This document shows, one piece after another, positions 775 through 43,147 of a stretch of DNA of 64,000 bases (its first letter is position 1; every line of letters starts with the position of its first letter). Position numbers and translations under genes: made by a program. The stretch is from positions 58,694-122,693 of the IMG/VR virus record IMGVR_UViG_3300035698_012504; one strand, 5' to 3'. The notes below the pieces were generated by a model. It ran no database searches, was not told the DNA's origin, and worked only from the letters and a program-made list of their open reading frames with translations. This stretch comes from a virus.

Positions 775-1161
775 ATGGCTAAGAAAGAAAAAAATAAAGA
801 ACTATTTGACATAATAGATGGTATATCTTTAAATAGAGTAGACCTATTCACGATGCGTGATCGTCTTAAACTAATAGATGGTAAGATGGAAGCAATATTT
901 CCTGAATCTAAAGATTACTCTAAAAGATATCTACTAGAAAATAAAATAAAAACAATAGTAGAGTTCCAAAAAGTAAGACTTGATGTCAACAGAGCAATCG
1001 AAGGTTCTTTTAAGAGCGAGTTCGAAGTGAGAAGAAAAGTTATGGGAGATGAGAAGGAAGGTGATGAAGTTGACATTCGCGAGGTTGTCAAAATAATTGA
1101 AGAATTAGATAGAAATAAGACTAAGACTACGACTATGATTGGAAAGGAAGATAATGGATAA
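775..1161 (+). CDS. hypothetical protein (Lys/Glu-rich)
   Basis: ORF abuts upstream and downstream genes with an ATGA-type overlap. Confidence 0.4.
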   Translation: MAKKEKNKELFDIIDGISLNRVDLFTMRDRLKLIDGKMEAIFPESKDYSKRYLLENKIKTIVEFQKVRLDVNRAIEGSFKSEFEVRRKVMGDEKEGDEVDIREVVKIIEELDRNKTKTTTMIGKEDNG

Positions 1162-3424
1162 ACTTGTTGAAGAAGAATCAATTCCTGCAGTGCAGGAGAA
1201 AAAGAAAAAGAAAACTTTGCTACCTCAGGTCCCAACGGAAGCGGCAGCATCAATAGAAGAAGATACATTAATAACTAGTAAATATTCGGATGTCAAGCTG
1301 ACAGAAGGTGAATTAGAAAAATCTAAAGACTTATTTGAAGACTTTTCTTCTTTCCTTAAAAAAGGATATGACTTTACTGAATCAAAAGAAAATAAGACAA
1401 CTATTCCTACTGGTATAGATCTATTGGATACTGTACTTGGTGGAGGAGTCTCGACAGGATTAGTACAATTTGTTGGGCCTCCTGGTTGTGGAAAAGCACA
1501 ACCATTGTATTCTAAAATTTTAACACCTAGTGGTTGGAAGACTATGGGAGAAATGAAAATAGGAAATAATGTATTTGATTCTAGAGGGGAAATTTGTAAT
1601 ATTACAAATGTATCTCCACAGGGGGAAAAGGATATATATGAAATAAAATTTACCGACGGAACCAAAGCTAGATCCACGTTAGACCATCTTTGGATATGTA
1701 AAAAAGATTATAAATCAGAATTTAAAGTTAGACGATTAGAAGAGATTTTTGAAGATATAAATAACCAACATACTAGCGATAAAAAATGGACCATACCTGT
1801 TAATAATGCTATTAATTTTGATAAAAATAATTTACCGATTGACCCATATTTATTGGGGTGCCTTTTGGGAGATGGATCTATGTATAGTCGAAATGATAAA
1901 ATATCTCTTACAGTATCTGATAAATATAAAGAAATTATAAATATTTGTGAAAAAACCCTCCCAGATAATATAAAATTAGAGGTAATTAATGGCTCAAAAT
2001 ACGGATATATATTTAATAGAATGAATAGAAGAGGTCAAGGCAAAAAAGATATTTTACGCAATGAGATGAAAGTTATTTTAAATGAATTAGGATTATTGGG
2101 AAAAAGTTCTAAAGATAAATTTATACCAGATTCATATAAATTTAGTTCAATTGATGATAGATTATCAATCTTACAAGGGTTATGTGATACTGATGGATCT
2201 ATAGAAAAAACAAATAGAATGTGTTTTTATTCAATATCTAAACGATTGATAGATGACGTAGCATTTATAATTAGATCATTGGGAGGAAGAATAAAAATAT
2301 ATAATAAAAAAACAAAATATAATGGGAATATTTTTAAATCATTTCAACTAGATATAAACCTACCAAATTGTTTTCCCCCAGTAAGAGTAAAAGAAAAATC
2401 AAAGTTATTATCAAATATAAGAAAAAGAACCATAACGAAATGTATAAAATCGGTTAAGTTTGTTGAAAAATCAGAAGCTCAGTGCATAGAAGTTAATAAT
2501 CCAAATGGGTCATATATAACTGACGAGTTCATAGTTACTCATAACTCTACATTGGCTGCGAAGGTTATATCTTCGGGTCAAAGGAAATGGCCTGGAAAAT
2601 TTATATCAGTATACTTAGATTCAGAAAATACAACTACTAAAAAAAGACTTACAGATCTTGGAGTTAAATATCCAGAGATAAATCCACAAAATGGAATTAC
2701 AATCGAAAAGGTATTCTCAATCGTTGAGGGGTTATGTGCATATAAGGAAGAACACAAAGATATACTAGATGTACCATCCATTATAGTATGGGATAGTATA
2801 GCGAGTACTCCTACTGAAGCTGAGGTAACAACTAATACAGAACAATTAAGTATACAAGCAAGTGCCCTTACTAAATATCTTAAAAAATATTCTGATAAGA
2901 TGGCAAATTATAATATATGTTTGTTCGCTCTGAATCAACTTAGAGATAGTATGCAGGTTGGTAAATTCAAAGGATTTAATAAACTAAAATTTCTTGGAGC
3001 GTATAATATTCCAGGAGGTAATGCTAATCTATTCGCATCTACACAACTTTTTTTCTTCAGGCCTACTGGAGATGTAGCAGGAGAGTATGGATTCAATGGA
3101 GTTAAGCTCACAGGAAAGGCTGTAAAGAATAAGTTATTTTCTCCAAACATTGACATATCCATGATAGTTAGTTTCGAAAGAGGCTTCTCAAACTTCTGGA
3201 CAAATTATGAACTACTAAAGAGAACAAAAAGAATTAAAGCTGCCGCTTGGTGTACATTAGAATCGTATCCTACTCAGAAGTTTAGACAGAAGGAAGCGAT
3301 TAAATATTACAGAGAAAATGCTGAATTTAGAAAAGCATGGGATAATGATGTAGAGGACGTGCTTAGAACTGAGATAATAGAACAGTATGAAACAAGTGAG
3401 GAAGACGCCGACGTTTGGAAATAA
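1139..3424 (+). CDS. RecA-like recombinase, intein-containing
   Basis: Extein motifs: GIDLLDTVLGGG...GPPGCGK[intein]STLAA (Walker A); IIVWDSIASTPTEAE; LFALNQLRDSMQVG; GGNANLFASTQL; KAVKNKLFSP. These match conserved RecA blocks. Confidence 0.8.
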   Translation: MERKIMDKLVEEESIPAVQEKKKKKTLLPQVPTEAAASIEEDTLITSKYSDVKLTEGELEKSKDLFEDFSSFLKKGYDFTESKENKTTIPTGIDLLDTVLGGGVSTGLVQFVGPPGCGKAQPLYSKILTPSGWKTMGEMKIGNNVFDSRGEICNITNVSPQGEKDIYEIKFTDGTKARSTLDHLWICKKDYKSEFKVRRLEEIFEDINNQHTSDKKWTIPVNNAINFDKNNLPIDPYLLGCLLGDGSMYSRNDKISLTVSDKYKEIINICEKTLPDNIKLEVINGSKYGYIFNRMNRRGQGKKDILRNEMKVILNELGLLGKSSKDKFIPDSYKFSSIDDRLSILQGLCDTDGSIEKTNRMCFYSISKRLIDDVAFIIRSLGGRIKIYNKKTKYNGNIFKSFQLDINLPNCFPPVRVKEKSKLLSNIRKRTITKCIKSVKFVEKSEAQCIEVNNPNGSYITDEFIVTHNSTLAAKVISSGQRKWPGKFISVYLDSENTTTKKRLTDLGVKYPEINPQNGITIEKVFSIVEGLCAYKEEHKDILDVPSIIVWDSIASTPTEAEVTTNTEQLSIQASALTKYLKKYSDKMANYNICLFALNQLRDSMQVGKFKGFNKLKFLGAYNIPGGNANLFASTQLFFFRPTGDVAGEYGFNGVKLTGKAVKNKLFSPNIDISMIVSFERGFSNFWTNYELLKRTKRIKAAAWCTLESYPTQKFRQKEAIKYYRENAEFRKAWDNDVEDVLRTEIIEQYETSEEDADVWK
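1496..2545 (+). mobile_element. intein with LAGLIDADG homing endonuclease inside the RecA P-loop, candidate class 3
   Basis: Begins AQPLYSKILT right after GPPGCGK and ends VTHN followed by S. Two LAGLIDADG motifs (LLGCLLGDGS, LQGLCDTDGS). Block B is TLDHLW; Cys at the block-F position (AQCIE); Thr two residues before HN. Confidence 0.7.
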
Positions 3425-8938: not shown

Positions 8939-8972
8939 TTGAGGACAAATATATAAAAGGAGTATTTGTCCT
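8939..8972 (+). promoter_or_regulatory. promoter-like motif TTGAGGACAAAtaTATAAA overlapping a 10-bp inverted repeat that brackets the RBS
   Basis: One of five copies of TGAGGACAAAyTwTAAA. AGGACAAATA (8942-8951) pairs with TATTTGTCCT (8963-8972) directly before the ATG at 8973. Confidence 0.45.
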
Positions 8973-9740
8973 ATGATTTTATGTAATTATGGTTGTGGGA
9001 ATGAAGGTAAATATCAATTAAAAAATGGTAAATGGTGTTGTTCAAAACACTGGTCTTCTTGCCCAGAAATAAAGAAAAAAACTAGTAGAATAACTGAAAA
9101 TAGATTCAAAATATGTGAAAATTGTAATAAAAAAATATTAAAAGCAAATCATAAAAAACATTTAAATGCATGTAAACGAGAGAACTTCTGTTTAGAGTGT
9201 GGTGAAAAACTAACATCAAAAGATAATAGAGCAAAGTTTTGTTCTCATAAATGTGCTGGAATATATAATAATAAAAATTCTGAAGGACTTAAATCATGCC
9301 GAAGAGGACCGATAAGTAAAAATAAAATACATTCTGATGAAGATGGAAATTATATATGTCAACAATGTGGAATAAAATTTAAGGGGCGACCTCGAAAGTT
9401 TTGTTCTCATAAATGCGCTGGATATAATAAATATATAAAAAATGTAGAAAAATGGATATCTGGTGAAACTAATGGTATGTATGGTAAAGTTCAAACCGCT
9501 ACATTTGTAAGAAATTATATCATAGAAAGAGATGGAAAAAAATGTTCTATGTGTAGTTGGGATAAAATCCATCAAATCACTGGTAAAGTTCCTATTCATT
9601 TAGATCATATAGATGGTAACTGGAAAAATAATAAGCCAGATAATCTTAGGATGTTATGTCCAAATTGTCATTCTCTAACTGAAAATTATGGGATATTAAA
9701 TAATGGGAATGGAAGACCGGACAATAGAAAAAGATATTAG
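8973..9740 (+). CDS. HNH homing endonuclease with Zn-finger repeats
   Basis: Repeated CxxC motifs (FCSHKCAG x2) and a C-terminal HNH box (HLDHIDGNW...NLRMLCPNCHSLTENYG). Confidence 0.8.
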   Translation: MILCNYGCGNEGKYQLKNGKWCCSKHWSSCPEIKKKTSRITENRFKICENCNKKILKANHKKHLNACKRENFCLECGEKLTSKDNRAKFCSHKCAGIYNNKNSEGLKSCRRGPISKNKIHSDEDGNYICQQCGIKFKGRPRKFCSHKCAGYNKYIKNVEKWISGETNGMYGKVQTATFVRNYIIERDGKKCSMCSWDKIHQITGKVPIHLDHIDGNWKNNKPDNLRMLCPNCHSLTENYGILNNGNGRPDNRKRY

Positions 9741-10476: not shown

Positions 10477-10986
10477 TTGAATTTTTCGCATAAAAATATT
10501 ATAAAGTATTGTAATCGTCCATTTAAATCCAAAGAAGAGATGGATGAAACTATGGTAAAGAATTGGAACAGTGTTGTATCATCTGGAGATACTGTATATC
10601 ATCTTGGAGATTTTAGCTTTTATAATTCTACAATTAAAACAAATCAAATGCTTCTTAGGTTAAATGGTAAAATTATATTTTGTCAAGGAAATCACGATAA
10701 AGATATTAATCAAATATTTCCAAGATTGCCTCAGATAATTATTTTAAGACATGAAGGTAGAAGGTTAATACTATGTCATTATGCTATGAGAGTATGGGAT
10801 AATTCTCATCGTAACAGTTGGCATCTATATGGACACAGTCATGGTACTCTTCCATCCATTGGAAAGAGTCATGACGTTGGAGTTGATAGTAATAAGTTTA
10901 CACCTATTAGTTTTGATCAACTAAAAGATATTATGAGTAAGAAACCCGATAATGGGAATTGTCTACCCGACTTTAAGGGAAAATGA
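10477..10986 (+). CDS. metallophosphoesterase; N-terminus lies in another frame (10412-10480)
   Basis: HKNIIKYCNRPF, HLGDFSF and GNHD motifs. Upstream ORF MGKNIRGGIGVSGNIFFTADTH* supplies the missing FTADTH metal-binding motif in the -1 frame. Confidence 0.55.
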   Translation: MNFSHKNIIKYCNRPFKSKEEMDETMVKNWNSVVSSGDTVYHLGDFSFYNSTIKTNQMLLRLNGKIIFCQGNHDKDINQIFPRLPQIIILRHEGRRLILCHYAMRVWDNSHRNSWHLYGHSHGTLPSIGKSHDVGVDSNKFTPISFDQLKDIMSKKPDNGNCLPDFKGK

Positions 10987-10994
10987 AACAAAAA

Positions 10995-11026
10995 AAGAAA
11001 TGTGTTGTGAGCACATTTCTTTTTGT
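10995..11026 (+). terminator. rho-independent terminator-like hairpin
   Basis: GAAATGTG-TTGTGAG-CACATTTC followed by TTTTTG. Confidence 0.55.
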
Positions 11027-11062
11027 ATCAGCTAGATAAGACTGTTAATAACTTCTTGCGCA

Positions 11063-11656
11063 ATGTATTGTGCCTCAAATTATTCTAGGCATTATGAATC
11101 ATGTATGACTCATACATGTTTAGAGTGTAATAAAATATTAAGTGGGAAGAAAAAATTCTGCAATAGTAGTTGTTCAGCTTTATATAATAATAGAACATCA
11201 GAAAAATTAAAAAATTGTAAAAGAGGGCCCCATTTAAAAAATTCAATTGAATATGTATGTATAGAATGTAAAAATATTATTAAAAATAGGGGTAAAAAAT
11301 ACTGTTCTCAAGAATGCTGTAGAGAACATCAATATAAAATAAGAATCAAAAATTGGAAAAGCGAATTAATTCCTGGATATACCGGAAAAGATTATACACT
11401 ATTAAAATTTATTAGAAGGTATATGTTTGAGAAATATGATAATAAATGTAGTAGATGTGGATGGAGTGAAATAAATTCAACATCTGGAAATATTCCATTA
11501 TCAATACATCATATAGATGGGGATGCTAGAAACTCTAAAGAACATAATTTAGATTTATTGTGTCCAAATTGCCATTCTTTAACTGAGAATTATGGATCTC
11601 TAAACAAAGATTCAGTAAGAATTCGTAATAAAGAATTTAATAAAAAGAGATGGTAA
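11063..11656 (+). CDS. HNH homing endonuclease, paralog of 8973
   Basis: CNSSCSALYNN and LKNCKRGP motifs; HNH box HHIDGDARN...CPNCHSLTENYG. Confidence 0.8.
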   Translation: MYCASNYSRHYESCMTHTCLECNKILSGKKKFCNSSCSALYNNRTSEKLKNCKRGPHLKNSIEYVCIECKNIIKNRGKKYCSQECCREHQYKIRIKNWKSELIPGYTGKDYTLLKFIRRYMFEKYDNKCSRCGWSEINSTSGNIPLSIHHIDGDARNSKEHNLDLLCPNCHSLTENYGSLNKDSVRIRNKEFNKKRW

Positions 11657-17583: not shown

Positions 17584-17769
17584 ATGAGAATAGAAAGAAA
17601 TGCTTTTGCTACTATATTTGTTGCAGAAACGCAAGGGGATGTTACACTACTAGAAACCTTCTGGCAGTTTACAAGAGAAGAAGATAAAAGTTATGATAAA
17701 ACTAAAAGAACTCCGCTTTTTAGAGAATCTGCGGATGATATAAATATACTTATAGATCATGGAATGTAA
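17584..17769 (+). CDS. hypothetical small protein
   Basis: ORF. Confidence 0.3.
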   Translation: MRIERNAFATIFVAETQGDVTLLETFWQFTREEDKSYDKTKRTPLFRESADDINILIDHGM

Positions 17770-19965: not shown

Positions 19966-20042
19966 GGGCGGGTGCGCAAACTGGCAAAGCGGCTAGATTT
20001 AGAATCTGGTGTCTGAGGGTTCGACTCCCTCCCCGCCTACCA
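19966..20042 (+). tRNA. tRNA with anticodon TAG (Leu-type), atypical short variable arm
   Basis: Acceptor GGGCGGG/CCCGCCT (G1-U72); anticodon stem CTAGA/TCTGG with loop TTTAGAA; variable loop only 5 nt; T-arm GAGGG-TTCGACT-CCCTC; A73 then CCA. Confidence 0.5.
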
Positions 20043-20570
20043 TTTCTAATATAGAGTATGCATTTTTTATAAAATCTCTAGCTATAGTTTTTCCACCACA
20101 AATAACTCTAACTAAAGGAGTTTTTCGACCGGCTTCTATATACTGAGAAGCATTTGGATATAATTTTAAAAGATGATCACATTCCTCTTTAGAATTAGAC
20201 ATTATTACTAGTCTATATTTATTGACTTTATATACATTGGTTAAACAATTAGTAAATAAATCTATCAAATTTGGATCTGTGTTACAAAACTGTAACATAT
20301 CAGTTTTCTCAGTATGCCAACCCTCACATAAATATGCAACATGAGCAGCTATAGACGATGGTATCATATATTCCCCCTTAATAGGATTAGTGTGTGATCT
20401 ACGAGGGATATAATTATATTCTGATGCAGACCTCATAGGAATATTATATACTTTTAAGTATTTCCTAATTGTTTTATGATCACATTCTAACAATTTTCCT
20501 ATCTCATACGGATTTAATTCTTTATTTAAATATAGATCTCTAAGTTCATTTTCATTAAGATTTTTCATAA
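19999..20570 (-). CDS. HTH DNA-binding protein, possibly a free-standing homing-endonuclease-like gene
   Basis: One of very few minus-strand genes. N-terminal HTH-like segment (LNPYEIGKLLECDHKTIRKYL). Sits beside the tRNA pair with its own copy of the promoter motif. Its 3' end overlaps the tRNA at 19966-20042 on the opposite strand. Confidence 0.35.
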
Positions 20571-25666: not shown

Positions 25667-26350
25667 ATGAAAAGTATTACGCTAAAATGTACCACGTGTG
25701 GAAAAGAATTTAAAAGAAATATTAATAATTATAAATATAATTTAAAGAAAAAATATAATTCATTTTGTTCACAAGAATGTAGTAATTTGGCAAAGTCTAC
25801 AACAGTTACAGTATTTTGTGAAATTTGCAATAAACAACTATTAAGACAACAATCTAGAATAAAAAAGAATAAATCAGGAAAGAGTTTTTGTTCAAATAAA
25901 TGTGCATCAATTTATAATAATAAAATAAGAGCAAATAATAAAAAATCTATTATGACCATTTGTGTCAATTGTGGAAAAGAAATAAAAAACATAACCAAAT
26001 ATAAAAGAAAATTTTGCGATGTTAATTGCCAGAACGAACACGAACATTCTACGTACATTGCCAGATGGAAAAATGGTGATGAACATGGATATTATAATGG
26101 TGGAAACTGTGGTCTTAATATAAAAATAAGAAGATATATCTTTAATAAATATGATAACAAATGCCATAAATGTGGATGGTGCGATGTTAATCCAACCTCT
26201 AGAAAAATACCATTAACAATAAACCATATAGATGGTAAAGCAAAAAATTGCAAAGAAGAAAATTTAGAATTGATCTGCCCTAATTGTCATTCATTGACAC
26301 CAAATTATGGGAGTTTAAACGAAAATTCAGATAGAAATAGAAAGGATTAG
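25667..26350 (+). CDS. HNH homing endonuclease, paralog of 8973
   Basis: Zn-finger repeats (FCSQECS, FCSNKCASIYNN) and HNH box NHIDGKAKN...CPNCHSLTPNYG. Confidence 0.8.
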   Translation: MKSITLKCTTCGKEFKRNINNYKYNLKKKYNSFCSQECSNLAKSTTVTVFCEICNKQLLRQQSRIKKNKSGKSFCSNKCASIYNNKIRANNKKSIMTICVNCGKEIKNITKYKRKFCDVNCQNEHEHSTYIARWKNGDEHGYYNGGNCGLNIKIRRYIFNKYDNKCHKCGWCDVNPTSRKIPLTINHIDGKAKNCKEENLELICPNCHSLTPNYGSLNENSDRNRKD

Positions 26351-36739: not shown

Positions 36740-38725
36740 ATGGATGTTCAAGAAAGACACTCTGCCATGACGGCAGAAATCATTTTACACAATGAACGAT
36801 ATTATGTACAAGCAGAGCCAAAGATTACAGATCAAGAATATGATAAAAGACTACATGCTCTGATTAAATTTGAGAAAGAACATCCAGAATTGGACACCTC
36901 CTGCTCCCCAACCAAAAGAGTTGGTGGAGAGGTAATTGATAAATTTACTTCTGTCAATCATGACGTCCCAATGCTATCCATTGGAAACACATACAACCAA
37001 GAAGAAGTGGAAGGATTTGTAGACAGAGTAAACGACAAAGGGTGTAAGATAGGTGAAGGAGAAGACCTATCCGCTGAATTGAAAATAGATGGTGTAGCAA
37101 TTTCAGTAACTTATAAAAATGGGAAGCTTGTGAGAGCAGTCACAAGAGGAGATGGTGAATCAGGAGATGATGTAACTCATACAGTTCGAACCATTCATGA
37201 TATACCCTTGACATTAACATGCGATGTAGATGTAGAGGTACGTGGCGAAATATACATGGAATTTGTAGAGTTTGATAGAATAAATAAAATCAAAGAAGAC
37301 GCAGGCGAGAAGCTTCTCATGAATCCAAGAAATGCTGCAGCAGGAATACTCAAAAGAAAGAATTCTACTGAAGCAGGTAAAGTAAACCTTAGAAACTTTA
37401 TGTTCAGAATGATTGGAGGTAATTCCCCATACCAATCTGTTGATCTGAATAATATGCGAACATTAGGATTTCGAACAAATCAACATTCGGTTACCGTTGA
37501 TTCTAAAGAAGCAATGATGGCCTATATTGCACGTTGGGATACTGCTAGATATGAACTCTCTTATCCAATAGATGGAGTGGTAGTTAAAGTAGATAGTGCT
37601 ATCAGTAGAGATACATTTGAAGAAACATCACATCATCCGAAGTGGCTCATTGCATACAAATTTCCTGCCGAGAGAAGAGGTACGAAGTTGCTGAGTATTG
37701 GTTTACAAGTTGGCAAATCTGGGATAATCACACCAGTAGCTCATCTCCAACCAATTCTTTTAGCTGGTACAATGGTTAAGAAAGCAACTCTTCATAACTT
37801 TGAGATATTAGCAGAGAAAGACATTAGAGAAGGAGATATGGTCTTAGTCGAGAAGGCTGGGGAAATAATTCCACAAGTAGTAGGACCAGTTCCAGGGCAA
37901 ACAGGAAGAGTTCCAAAAGTTTCAAAGATTCCAAAGAAGTGTCCAGTATGTAGAGGTAATGTAAAGAAAGTTAATGCTTATTACATATGTTCCAATCCTT
38001 CTTGTCCTGCACAGCTCAAAGGCACGATAGAATATTTTGTCAAAAGAGATGTGATGGATATAGATAATATTGGAGATATGCTTATTGCTCAATTGATTGA
38101 TACTGGATTGGTAAAAACAGTTGCAGATCTATATACCCTTACAAAAGCACAATTACTGAAGCTTGAGAGAATTGGTGAAAAATCTGCTGATAATATATTA
38201 GCTGCAATAGAGAAGTCAAAAGAACAATCATTCAATAGAGTGTTATGTGGGATGCAGATACATAACGTTGGTAGAACGTTATCGAAGATTCTTGCTAATA
38301 AGTTCCTAACTATTGATGATCTTATAAAAATGAGTAAAAATGAGTTGATGGTAGTAGATGGAATTGGAGAATTAGTCGCAGATGGAATTATAGACTTTTT
38401 CGATCAACCAAAAAATATTGAACTTGTAACGAGATTGAAAGGAGCTGGATTAAATATGGCTACAGTTAAAAACGTAGATGGTGGAGTATTAGGCGGTCCA
38501 CTAAAAGGAAAGAAATTATTAGGTACGGGAAAATTTAAAGAATTTACAAGAGTTGAGTTTGTAGACGCTGTTAGAAATAATGGTGGAAAAATTGTATCAA
38601 CAATATCAAAAAGAGTTGACTATTTGGTAGTAGGGGAAAAACCCAGCCCGGGGAAGGTGGCTAAAGCGAAGCAGCTTAAAATCCCCATGTTGTCGGAGGC
38701 GGTGTTTCTTGAGATGGTTAAGTAA
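36740..38725 (+). CDS. ligA: NAD-dependent DNA ligase
   Basis: Adenylation motif AELKIDGVAISVTYKNGKLVRAVTRGDG; OB and zinc-finger region (CPVCRG...C..PSCP); helix-hairpin-helix region; BRCT-like C-terminus. Confidence 0.85.
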   Translation: MDVQERHSAMTAEIILHNERYYVQAEPKITDQEYDKRLHALIKFEKEHPELDTSCSPTKRVGGEVIDKFTSVNHDVPMLSIGNTYNQEEVEGFVDRVNDKGCKIGEGEDLSAELKIDGVAISVTYKNGKLVRAVTRGDGESGDDVTHTVRTIHDIPLTLTCDVDVEVRGEIYMEFVEFDRINKIKEDAGEKLLMNPRNAAAGILKRKNSTEAGKVNLRNFMFRMIGGNSPYQSVDLNNMRTLGFRTNQHSVTVDSKEAMMAYIARWDTARYELSYPIDGVVVKVDSAISRDTFEETSHHPKWLIAYKFPAERRGTKLLSIGLQVGKSGIITPVAHLQPILLAGTMVKKATLHNFEILAEKDIREGDMVLVEKAGEIIPQVVGPVPGQTGRVPKVSKIPKKCPVCRGNVKKVNAYYICSNPSCPAQLKGTIEYFVKRDVMDIDNIGDMLIAQLIDTGLVKTVADLYTLTKAQLLKLERIGEKSADNILAAIEKSKEQSFNRVLCGMQIHNVGRTLSKILANKFLTIDDLIKMSKNELMVVDGIGELVADGIIDFFDQPKNIELVTRLKGAGLNMATVKNVDGGVLGGPLKGKKLLGTGKFKEFTRVEFVDAVRNNGGKIVSTISKRVDYLVVGEKPSPGKVAKAKQLKIPMLSEAVFLEMVK

Positions 38726-38770
38726 CTCGAACTGTTAATCATTCTCTAGGTTAATCTATCGTTAATTTAT

Positions 38771-38790
38771 TTGAGGACAAACTTTAAACT
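38771..38790 (+). promoter_or_regulatory. promoter-like motif TTGAGGACAAACTTTAAACT
   Basis: Third copy of the conserved motif. Confidence 0.4.
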
Positions 38791-38807
38791 TTTAGTAAAA
38801 GAACAAA

Positions 38808-38880
38808 AAAAGAGATGTGTTACGATCACATCTCCTTTTGTATCAGTTAGCTGAAACTGTTAATAATTTCTTGCGCTATG
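38808..38880 (+). repeat. 73-bp hairpin-plus-promoter-like repeat, copy 2 (copy 1 at 10995-11065)
   Basis: About 85% identity to 10995-11065, with compensatory changes in the hairpin stem (GAGATGTG/CACATCTC versus GAAATGTG/CACATTTC). Contains TTGTAT-N17-TAATAA and ends in ATG. Confidence 0.6.
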
Positions 38881-39021
38881 ATGGGTGCCGCGACGACAAC
38901 CAGAGCAAGTAATGATTTAACTATTATGATTTTAGTTTCTGTATTCATAATAAATCCTCCTATATTTATGTACTCATATATGAATATATATAGTAATAGG
39001 TAGAGATATTATAAATAAATT

Positions 39022-39804
39022 ATGGAGAATTGTATGAATAAAAAAAAGTTGGATAAGTTAGTTAAAGAGAGTATCAATTTAACCGAATTAATTGAAAAGA
39101 TGGGATTATCTGTTACCTCCCCTGGAAATAGGTCAGGACTAATTAAAAAAATGAAAAAACTTGATATTAATTTTTCCCATTTTTCTGAGAAGAATCATAG
39201 ATCTAAAAGACAACCGCATTATAAATATAAAAATGAAGAAGTCTTTTGCGAAAATTCTCCGATTAAAAAAACAACAAAAATAAAAGAAATGTTATATTCT
39301 AGAGGGATTCGAACAAAAGTTTGTGAAGAATGTAATCTCTCTAAATGGAGGGGGCATAGTATAGGATTAGAATTACATCATATAAATATGGATAGGATCG
39401 ACAATAGATTGGAGAATTTGCAAATCCTCTGTTCAAATTGTCACACTTTAACCCATACGATTATAAGAGAGAAACAATTAAAATTAAAATTAAAAATCAA
39501 TACAAAAATAATTTTAGAGAAATCTCAAGTAGTATGTAAGGACTGTGGAAAGGTCATATCTCAAAAGAGTATAAGATGTATATCCTGTTCTAATAAGAAA
39601 AAAGGAATAAGCCTAAGAAAGGTTGTAAGACCTTCAAAAAAACAATTATTAAAAGAAATTAATATGATTAGTATTGTAAAGATAGGTGAGAAGTATGGGG
39701 TATCTGACAATGCTGTCAGAAAATGGGCCAAGAGTTATGAGTTGTCTTTGAGTGGGTGCGCCAGAGATGGAGGGCTGGACAGGGCTGTAAACCCTGTGTC
39801 CTAA
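39022..39804 (+). CDS. HNH homing endonuclease; predicted 3' end runs into tRNA-Tyr
   Basis: LELHHINMDRIDNRLENLQILCSNCHTLTH HNH box plus a C-terminal HTH-like segment. Last ~50 nt overlap the tRNA at 39752. Confidence 0.65.
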   Translation: MENCMNKKKLDKLVKESINLTELIEKMGLSVTSPGNRSGLIKKMKKLDINFSHFSEKNHRSKRQPHYKYKNEEVFCENSPIKKTTKIKEMLYSRGIRTKVCEECNLSKWRGHSIGLELHHINMDRIDNRLENLQILCSNCHTLTHTIIREKQLKLKLKINTKIILEKSQVVCKDCGKVISQKSIRCISCSNKKKGISLRKVVRPSKKQLLKEINMISIVKIGEKYGVSDNAVRKWAKSYELSLSGCARDGGLDRAVNPVS

Positions 39805-39840
39805 CGGACCTAGTAGATTCGAATTCTACCACCCACACCA
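39752..39840 (+). tRNA. tRNA-Tyr (anticodon GTA)
   Basis: Acceptor GTGGGTG/CACCCAC; D-arm CCAG...CTGG; anticodon stem CAGGG/CCCTG with loop CTGTAAA; 16-nt variable arm; T-arm GTAGA-TTCGAAT-TCTAC; ACCA end. Confidence 0.75.
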
Positions 39841-41796: not shown

Positions 41797-41812
41797 AATT
41801 TAGTCAACATTG

Positions 41813-43064: not shown

Positions 43065-43083
43065 ATGAGGACAAACTATAAAA
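43065..43083 (+). promoter_or_regulatory. promoter-like motif ATGAGGACAAACTATAAAA
   Basis: Fourth copy of the conserved motif, just after the terminator and 65 nt before the ATG at 43148. Confidence 0.45.
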
Positions 43084-43147
43084 TCTTGGAGTGTTCAGAT
43101 TCCAAGATTGTTTAACATGTGACATCAAATATCGAGGAGAAGAAAAA

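Follow-up and report, generated by a model that had tools for sequence, protein, structure and literature searches.

A two-copy, hairpin-bearing intergenic repeat 5′ of HNH endonuclease genes in a large phage known from metagenomes

T4-type phages carry mobile regulatory cassettes termed promoter-early stem-loop (PeSL) elements (Arbiol et al. 2010, PMC2839356; Comeau et al. 2014, PMC4122927). There are ~50 per genome, clustered in hyperplastic regions, with near-consensus sigma-70 early promoters; promoter, terminator and recombination activity have been shown, and the copies recombine, creating indels or mini-circles between close relatives (PMC2839356, PMC4122927). In T4 itself, seven free-standing endonuclease genes are organized as cassettes that lack promoters and are transcribed from promoters upstream, weak terminators damp mobE and segF from inside the 5′ coding region, and hairpins that sequester the consensus ribosome-binding site (RBS) limit translation of I-TevI, segB and Aeh1 mobE (PMC2988022). 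By analogy, PeSL cassettes and the terminator/hairpin control of T4 homing-endonuclease genes are the closest counterparts of a structured intergenic repeat that we analyzed in 64,000 nt of phage DNA (positions 58,694 to 122,693 of IMG/VR record IMGVR_UViG_3300035698_012504; hereafter, the window). The repeat is real: it lies 5′ of two HNH endonuclease genes and combines a hairpin with a conserved start codon.

Exactly two copies of the repeat were found in the window, both intergenic and co-directional with all neighboring genes (Table 1). Gap-free extension aligned 88 nt, of which 72 were identical (82%, 16 mismatches). An earlier sequence-only reading had put the repeat at ~73 bp and ~85% identity; the two-copy repeat stands, with a measured identity of 83% across the 71-nt span marked by that reading and 82% over the full 88 nt. 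The layout is common to both copies, i.e., A7, an 8-bp stem, a 7-nt loop, a short T-run, ~38 further nt and an ATG. A degenerate 41-nt pattern with up to 3 mismatches matched the two copies alone (0 expected in shuffles), and an nhmmer profile of the whole repeat gave E = 1e-27 at both copies and otherwise nothing below E = 0.5 except the hairpins' own reverse strands. Neither these searches nor a tail-only nhmmer profile revealed further copies in the window, and none was present in 9.2 kb of extra upstream and ~0.7 kb of downstream sequence from public contigs. The search for additional copies proposed by the earlier reading, run on the window and this flanking sequence, ended with two. Exact-pattern scans of viral, metagenome and genome collections returned three chance matches only, lacking both the hairpin and TTCTTGCGC. 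The mismatches showed no significant clustering into conserved blocks across the 88 nt (p = 0.13), so block-wise conservation of the 43-nt tail cannot be claimed, nor can selection on it be shown from two sequences.

RNA folding, also proposed by the earlier reading, gave hairpins far more stable than those of shuffled sequences. With the A/U extension included, the folds reached −15.2 kcal/mol in copy 1 (z = −5.6) and −12.4 kcal/mol in copy 2 (z = −4.4), and the core stems scored −8.9 and −10.0 kcal/mol, respectively, in a custom plus-strand scan. The stem arms are GAAATGTG/CACATTTC in copy 1 and GAGATGTG/CACATCTC in copy 2. Of the compensatory stem changes described previously, one A-U to G-C pair was confirmed (alignment positions 13/31); it is a single event, in stems with only 3–4 G-C pairs of 8, and by our rough estimate the chance of two stem substitutions hitting one pair and restoring pairing is ~0.02–0.05. 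The extended stem loses its first A-U pair in copy 2 through a third change (T to C, alignment position 34, window 38835), and 3 of the 7 loop positions differ between the copies.

Both copies show the sequence pattern of an intrinsic terminator, that is, a stem-loop with a loop of 3–8 nt and a U-rich tract (UUUUUG after the stem in copy 1; the weaker CUUUUG in copy 2). A terminator scan flagged copy 1 on the minus strand, where a T7 run follows the stem, and copy 2 on both strands. The hairpin of copy 1 lies 10 nt past a stop codon and is followed by co-directional genes without a recognizable promoter. A custom scan of the plus strand of the 64 kb gave ~4 credible intergenic sites with a hairpin and a T-run, both repeat hairpins among them; the others are GC-rich and much stronger terminators at 41812 and 55058. 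The hairpin and T-run are therefore terminator-like, and a predicted intrinsic terminator or attenuator is a plausible assignment. Among known RNA families, only a sub-threshold Rfam match was obtained, to RF03046 (Pseudomonadales-1) at 10903–11060. It was rejected, with 35.9 bits against a gathering threshold of 68 bits, half of the match in coding DNA, many non-canonical pairs and no match at copy 2.

The alternative named by the sequence-only reading, that the copies are simply 3′ ends of paralogous genes, does not hold, as the genes upstream are a phosphoesterase and a DNA ligase, both with native stops. Homologues of the phosphoesterase align through residue 168/169, which indicates that its stop is native and that copy 1 is not coding. 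An extension of the repeat homology 5′ of 10987 was rejected, since the DNA there codes for the conserved C-terminus of the phosphoesterase. Measured from the upstream stops, the repeat begins 1 nt after the phosphoesterase (copy 1) and 77 nt after the ligase (copy 2). In both cases the next gene downstream is an HNH gene, and only 3 of the ~30 intergenic gaps of ≥45 nt precede an HNH gene, which supports a non-random placement of the repeat at the 5′ side of such genes.

A listing of intergenic gaps uncovered a recurrent promoter-like motif: a T-rich stretch, then TGAGGACAAA, one base and TWTAAA. The 10-mer is exact at five sites (8940–8958, 38772–38790, 43066–43084 and 56175–56193 on the plus strand; 20630–20612 on the minus strand). 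All five are intergenic and oriented to the downstream gene, including the window's only minus-strand gene (19999–20568), and these TGAGGACAAA-N-TWTAAA sites are the real promoter candidates of the genome. One of them ends 13 nt 5′ of copy 2. A profile built from the five instances found none on the plus strand inside either repeat copy, and none precedes copy 1; no plus-strand TGAGGACAAA copy occurs between 8940 and 38772. Several features accompany the motif. A TTGnnn hexamer is often found 18–19 nt 5′ of TWTAAA, and the core AGGACAA is repeated inverted downstream (TTGTCC[T]) at 8940 and 20630.

Our leading explanation, which we hold tentatively, is that the repeat is an intergenic module duplicated once, consisting of an intrinsic terminator or attenuator hairpin and a ~43-nt untranslated leader that ends in an AUG without a Shine-Dalgarno (SD) sequence; an internal sigma-70 promoter would not be needed. 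At copy 1, the hairpin would end or attenuate the phosphoesterase transcript, so that the HNH gene at 11063 would be reached by read-through RNA only. Its ATG has no SD sequence, while nearly all other genes have one of the AGGAG type, and the read-through RNA would be poorly translated at this gene, which lacks an RBS. Low expression of HNH 11063 would follow from attenuation combined with the missing RBS. Copy 2 needs no internal promoter because of the TGAGGACAAA/TTTAAA motif 13 nt upstream. In a transcript from the 38772 motif, the entire repeat would span about +6 to +95, and the hairpin would lie ~15–20 nt into a transcript that probably starts at this motif, as an attenuator or a 5′ stabilizing stem-loop ahead of HNH 39034 and a tRNA-Tyr-like gene. 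Stable 5′-proximal hairpins also follow other copies of the motif, such as that at 43066 (43082–43109, −13.9 kcal/mol). The most likely origin of the second copy is ectopic recombination, or a repair tract, associated with the turnover of nuclease genes, with one joint inside the shortened HNH 11063 ORF (open reading frame).

Several points weigh against this explanation. The stem is AT-rich (3–4 G-C pairs of 8) and the plus-strand U-run is short (5 U in copy 1; C and 4 U in copy 2), and it is the minus strand that has the better T-run (7 T). Termination may thus be weak or partial, as expected from the short plus-strand U-runs, and partial termination fits with the lack of a recognizable plus-strand promoter motif between 8940 and 38772. 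Efficient termination at 11020 would cut the downstream genes off from any known promoter; given the stretch from 8940 to 38772 without the motif, this argues either for a leaky copy 1 hairpin or for a restart signal in the tail. Moreover, there are only two sequences, with no significant mismatch clustering, and the tail is possibly just young duplicated DNA.

The hairpins resemble ordinary Rho-independent terminators with an upstream A-tract (the bidirectional type) in their A-run, a stem with G-C at both ends, the 7-nt loop and the T-run, and in the location of copy 1 right after a stop codon. They differ in the AT-rich stem and short plus-strand U-run, in the location of copy 2, which comes after a promoter-like motif and not immediately behind a gene, and in that the 50 nt past the hairpin were duplicated along with it. 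The likeness to the control of free-standing T4 endonuclease genes, seen here from sequence alone, lies in HNH genes within co-directional operons that would be fed by read-through, a weak 5′ terminator or hairpin, poor translation signals and a presumably low nuclease level. The hairpin here is upstream of the ORF, unlike in T4, and HNH 11063 is without any RBS. A T4-like hairpin overlapping RBS and promoter occurs instead at the paralog HNH 8973: an 11-bp hairpin at 8942–8972 (AGGACAAAUAU/GUAUUUGUCCU; −12.4 kcal/mol, z = −4.2) that ends 1 nt before the ATG, whose 5′ arm is the promoter-like motif and whose loop and 3′ arm hold an AAGGAG SD sequence. It would form on read-through RNA only, following the same logic as the control hairpins of T4 I-TevI, segB and mobE.

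Table 1 Features of the two repeat copies and their surroundings in the window.
Feature	Position	Strand	Details
Repeat copy 1	10987..11074	+	A-run, hairpin, T-run, 43-nt tail (T-run included), ATG and 9 nt
Copy 1 hairpin	10990..11024	+	A7 10990-10996; stem 10997-11004/11012-11019; loop 11005-11011; T5 11020-11024
Copy 1 tail (leader)	11020..11062	+	TTGTAT 11023-11028, N17, TAATAA 11046-11051; no SD before ATG 11063
Repeat copy 2	38802..38889	+	88 nt; found by pattern, extension and nhmmer
Copy 2 hairpin	38805..38839	+	A7 38805-38811; stem 38812-38819/38827-38834; loop 38820-38826; C38835; T4 38836-38839
Copy 2 tail	38835..38877	+	TTGTAT 38838-38843, TAATAA 38861-38866; ends at ATG 38878; no SD
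TGAGGACAAA-C-TTTAAA	38772..38788	+	Promoter-like motif; ends 13 nt 5′ of repeat copy 2
Metallophos_2 calcineurin-like phosphoesterase	10477..10986	+	E = 2.9e-8; upstream of copy 1; stop TGA 10984-10986
HNH endonuclease 11063	11063..11656	+	197 aa; no SD; motif HH..N..CPNCH conserved; gene callers use the same start
NAD-dependent DNA ligase	36740..38725	+	All LigA domains present; BRCT ends at residue 658/661; upstream of copy 2
Copy 2 ORF	38878..39003	+	Starts at the repeat's ATG; 41 codons; 142 nt before ATG 39022; probably not a gene
HNH 39034	39034..39804	+	256 aa from the likely start ATG 39034, GGAG SD; ORF opens at 39022; different subtype; 3′ end runs into tRNA-Tyr-like sequence

A rather unlikely alternative is that ectopic recombination, or the repair of double-strand breaks close to nuclease genes, produced the second copy recently as an essentially neutral by-product, with only the pre-existing hairpin functional and no regulatory meaning in the tail, the ATG or the association with HNH genes. 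The existence of only two copies, 82% identical and with mismatches scattered as at random, is consistent with it, as is the absence of a copy from any other genome scanned. The boundary of the repeat points the same way. The similarity between the copies ends 12 nt into the HNH 11063 ORF (3′ boundary 11074), and the ORF is truncated, being ~60 N-terminal residues shorter than its paralogs, 8973–9740 and 25667–26350 (44–46% identity), neither of which has the repeat. From this sequence context, the 3′ boundary of copy 1 resembles a recombination joint more than the end of a cassette. Against neutrality, the compensatory change in the stem compared with 3 of 7 loop positions changed argues for continued selection on the hairpin at least, and the chance of both copies lying directly 5′ of HNH genes is ~0.01 under random placement among intergenic gaps.

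The sequence-only reading had suggested that HNH cassettes travel with the repeat. The part that holds is that both copies lie 5′ of HNH genes. Copy 1 ends in the ATG of HNH 11063 and copy 2 in the ATG of a small ORF, as had been described, with the ORF now measured at 41 aa and 142 nt before ATG 39022. This ORF is probably not a gene, having no SD sequence, no Pfam match, no call in the public assemblies and no similarity to HNH genes. The likely start of the second HNH gene is ATG 39034; copy 2 is 155 nt from the HNH start and is separated from the gene by ~145 nt of AT-rich, unrelated DNA, in which no decayed HNH remnant was detected (no similarity beyond shuffles). The two HNH proteins are of different types, with 29% identity only. 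At 51 IMG/VR loci with homologues of HNH 11063, no profile match was found 5′ of the gene; this is a weak test, since most homologues share 36–53% identity over the aligned stretch, the rest are weaker partial matches, and non-coding DNA is hardly recognizable at such distance. Together with the boundary of copy 1 inside the ORF, these results leave the proposed travel of HNH cassettes with the repeat weakly supported.

Homologous loci lacking the HNH gene were not found in the collections searched. Megablast against phage records returned nothing, a search with the phosphoesterase gave 80 IMG/VR loci at ≤60% identity, none of them syntenic, the ligase retrieved no related locus in IMG/VR, and ORF 11676 had no homologue among 5.8 billion proteins. 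One unrelated IMG/VR phage (L007 4900–4975) has a homologous HNH gene ~500 nt downstream of a homologous phosphoesterase. In our reading, made without a scan, a G+C-rich structured segment and then a near-consensus TTGACT-N18-TATAAT lie ahead of that gene.

The window contains four free-standing HNH genes (8973–9740, 11063–11656, 25667–26350 and 39034–39804), three of which are paralogs (44–46% identity) with repeated CxxC...FCSxxC zinc-finger units. Neighboring tRNA genes directly adjoin three of the four (tRNA-Gly 8830, tRNA-Ala 25565 and the tRNA-Tyr-like sequence at 39752), an arrangement reminiscent of SegB in the tRNA region of T4. The last of these was called by ARAGORN as an 89-nt tRNA-Tyr (GTA) at 39752–39840 that overlaps the final 53 nt of the HNH 39034 ORF, and no match to the Rfam tRNA model was obtained there even at E ≤ 10. 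Conversely, an Rfam tRNA at 36446–36516 was absent from the ARAGORN list.

It is unlikely that the repeat is a composite terminator-plus-promoter unit that moves with HNH cassettes in the manner of PeSLs, with transcription restarting at TTGTAT-N17/18-TAATAA/AATAAY to give a near-leaderless HNH mRNA. PeSLs are likewise intergenic repeats of ~100 bp or less with a stem-loop terminator or attenuator followed by leader or promoter sequence, they are proposed to bring regulation along and to serve as recombination sites, and both copies here share their position directly 5′ of non-essential or ORFan genes. T4-type PeSL cassettes have exactly the architecture that such a unit would require (PMC2839356, PMC4122927). 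An HNH gene is downstream of both copies, the TTGTAT and ACTGTTAATAA blocks are the same in both, a TG one base 5′ of TAATAA resembles an extended −10 element, and the ATG without an SD sequence is ~5 nt past the predicted start site. Transcription would also have to restart after a terminator placed within a long co-directional gene array, and no further promoter motif was seen over 27 kb.

The proposed promoter itself does not rise above background. The string TTGTAT-N17-TAATAA noted by the sequence-only reading is indeed present in both copies, and it matches TTGACA/TATAAT at 3 + 3 of 12 positions. With TTGTAT-N18-AATAAY, the most favorable arrangement, the match rises to 7/12 in copy 1 and 8/12 in copy 2. 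Equal or better sites in the AT-rich window number ~18,000 at ≥6/12, ~9,600 at ≥7/12 and ~3,000 at ≥8/12. A sigma-70 consensus scan did not report the element, and the scan's own hits at ≥9/12 were no commoner than in shuffles. In addition, TAATAA does not end in the T that is invariant in −10 hexamers. As sequence evidence, the embedded sigma-70 promoter is thus not supported, and consensus spotting of this kind is uninformative in this AT-rich genome.

Further differences from PeSLs concern number and context. Two copies were found in the 64 kb and the 9.2-kb flank, against ~50 per genome for PeSLs, the stem-loop is present with a promoter match at background level, and the phage has a different recurrent promoter-like motif, a strong instance of which already lies 13 nt 5′ of copy 2. 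Sigma-70 rules may also not hold for this phage, since it encodes at least one multisubunit RNA polymerase fragment (PF00623). Finally, the downstream HNH types differ, the HNH gene of copy 2 is 155 nt off, and HNH homologues elsewhere are without the element.

Other short sequences in and around the tails were profiled. Downstream of the ligase stop and ahead of the promoter-like motif, at 38728–38768, are three decamers containing GTTAAT (CTGTTAATCA, GGTTAATCTA and CGTTAATTTA), and CTGTTAATAA is found again in the tails of both repeat copies. They may form a protein-binding array or reflect chance, the DNA being AT-rich; no window-wide enrichment of ACTGTTAATMA was seen. The T4 late-promoter consensus TATAAATA occurs at 30 window sites against 14.6 expected, a number reached by 0 of 100 shuffles, with a strand bias to the plus strand (20:10). 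Most of these sites are inside genes and none is within the repeat (examples at 17739, 39010 and 47707); the copy at 39010 is 17 nt 5′ of the start of HNH 39034.

A broader possibility, which we regard as improbable, is that the repeat serves selfish nuclease genes as a dedicated module for regulation and recombination, in a phage that uses its own RNA polymerase. The hairpin would be an attenuator, the tail a minor-class phage promoter or an HNH-bound operator, and the homology between copies would let cassettes swap loci, making the module PeSL-like outside the T4 group.

The narrower idea that the tail is a candidate protein-binding operator resembling a homing or recognition site, bound by an HNH protein for autorepression or targeting, is very doubtful. 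The model for it is I-TevI, which binds both its operator and its homing site. Copy 1 lies directly 5′ of, and overlaps, the start of HNH 11063, a similar sequence occurs elsewhere in the genome, and the tail holds an imperfect inverted repeat, ATCAG-N13-CTGTT. The palindrome is weak, however; a homing site would be expected at the same locus in relatives without the nuclease, not 27.8 kb away in the same genome, and the second copy adjoins a different HNH type. Least credible of all is a minus-strand element, an antisense small RNA over the HNH start region ending at the hairpin with the best U-run (7 U): minus-strand terminators were called at both copies, the minus-strand fold of copy 2 has z = −3.6, and there is a weak TTTGAGGcACAA promoter-like match at 11089–11073 on the minus strand (E = 11), but this match is at chance level in copy 1 and absent from copy 2, the similarity between copies stops at 11074/38889 and thus leaves no conserved antisense promoter, only a single minus-strand gene exists in the window, and A-runs 5′ of terminators are common without antisense function.

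The window comes from a large phage that is represented in metagenome assemblies alone (ENA ERZ27315536 and others, Logan SRR5581654 and JGI 3300022890). All public contigs of the phage are 100% identical to the window, and no relatives were found in the phage record collection or IMG/VR. The window has ~34% G+C and 11–12 tRNA genes, with all genes but one on the plus strand. Recognized genes include a UvsX/RecA-like recombinase with a LAGLIDADG-type insert, two RNA ligases, ClpP, an RF-1 domain protein, Cpn10, HSP20 and a vault-protein-like ORF. The UvsX/RecA-like ORF (1139–3424; 761 aa, called as 756 aa) has weak LAGLIDADG_3 matches, and its PHROG matches are split around residues 110–476 and 470–639, which suggests an intein or endonuclease insertion. 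The vault-like ORF (30648–33392; 914 aa) has a local G+C of 46–47% versus ~34% and matches the major-vault-protein domains PF11978 (MVP_shoulder) and PF17795 (Vault_3; weak), which is unusual for a phage. Just upstream of the window, a Volactin-domain ORF and a GIY-YIG ORF are encoded (L089 6691–8608).

Near the end of the window, a 311-aa ORF (57502–58437) matches PF00623 (RNA_pol_Rpb1_2), part of a multisubunit RNA polymerase, and is followed by a very large ORF that runs from 60796 to past 64000 (≥1,314 aa in public contig L085). Their sequences suggest a split, phage-encoded multisubunit RNA polymerase as in jumbo phages, and such a polymerase bears on which promoters matter in the genome.

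The phage itself and its TGAGGACAAA motif are arguably of more interest than the repeat. If the module does damp or insulate HNH genes, it would be a further case, in a very divergent large phage, of the tolerance of selfish nuclease genes, and it would hint that short regulatory repeats mark the sites at which such genes are exchanged.

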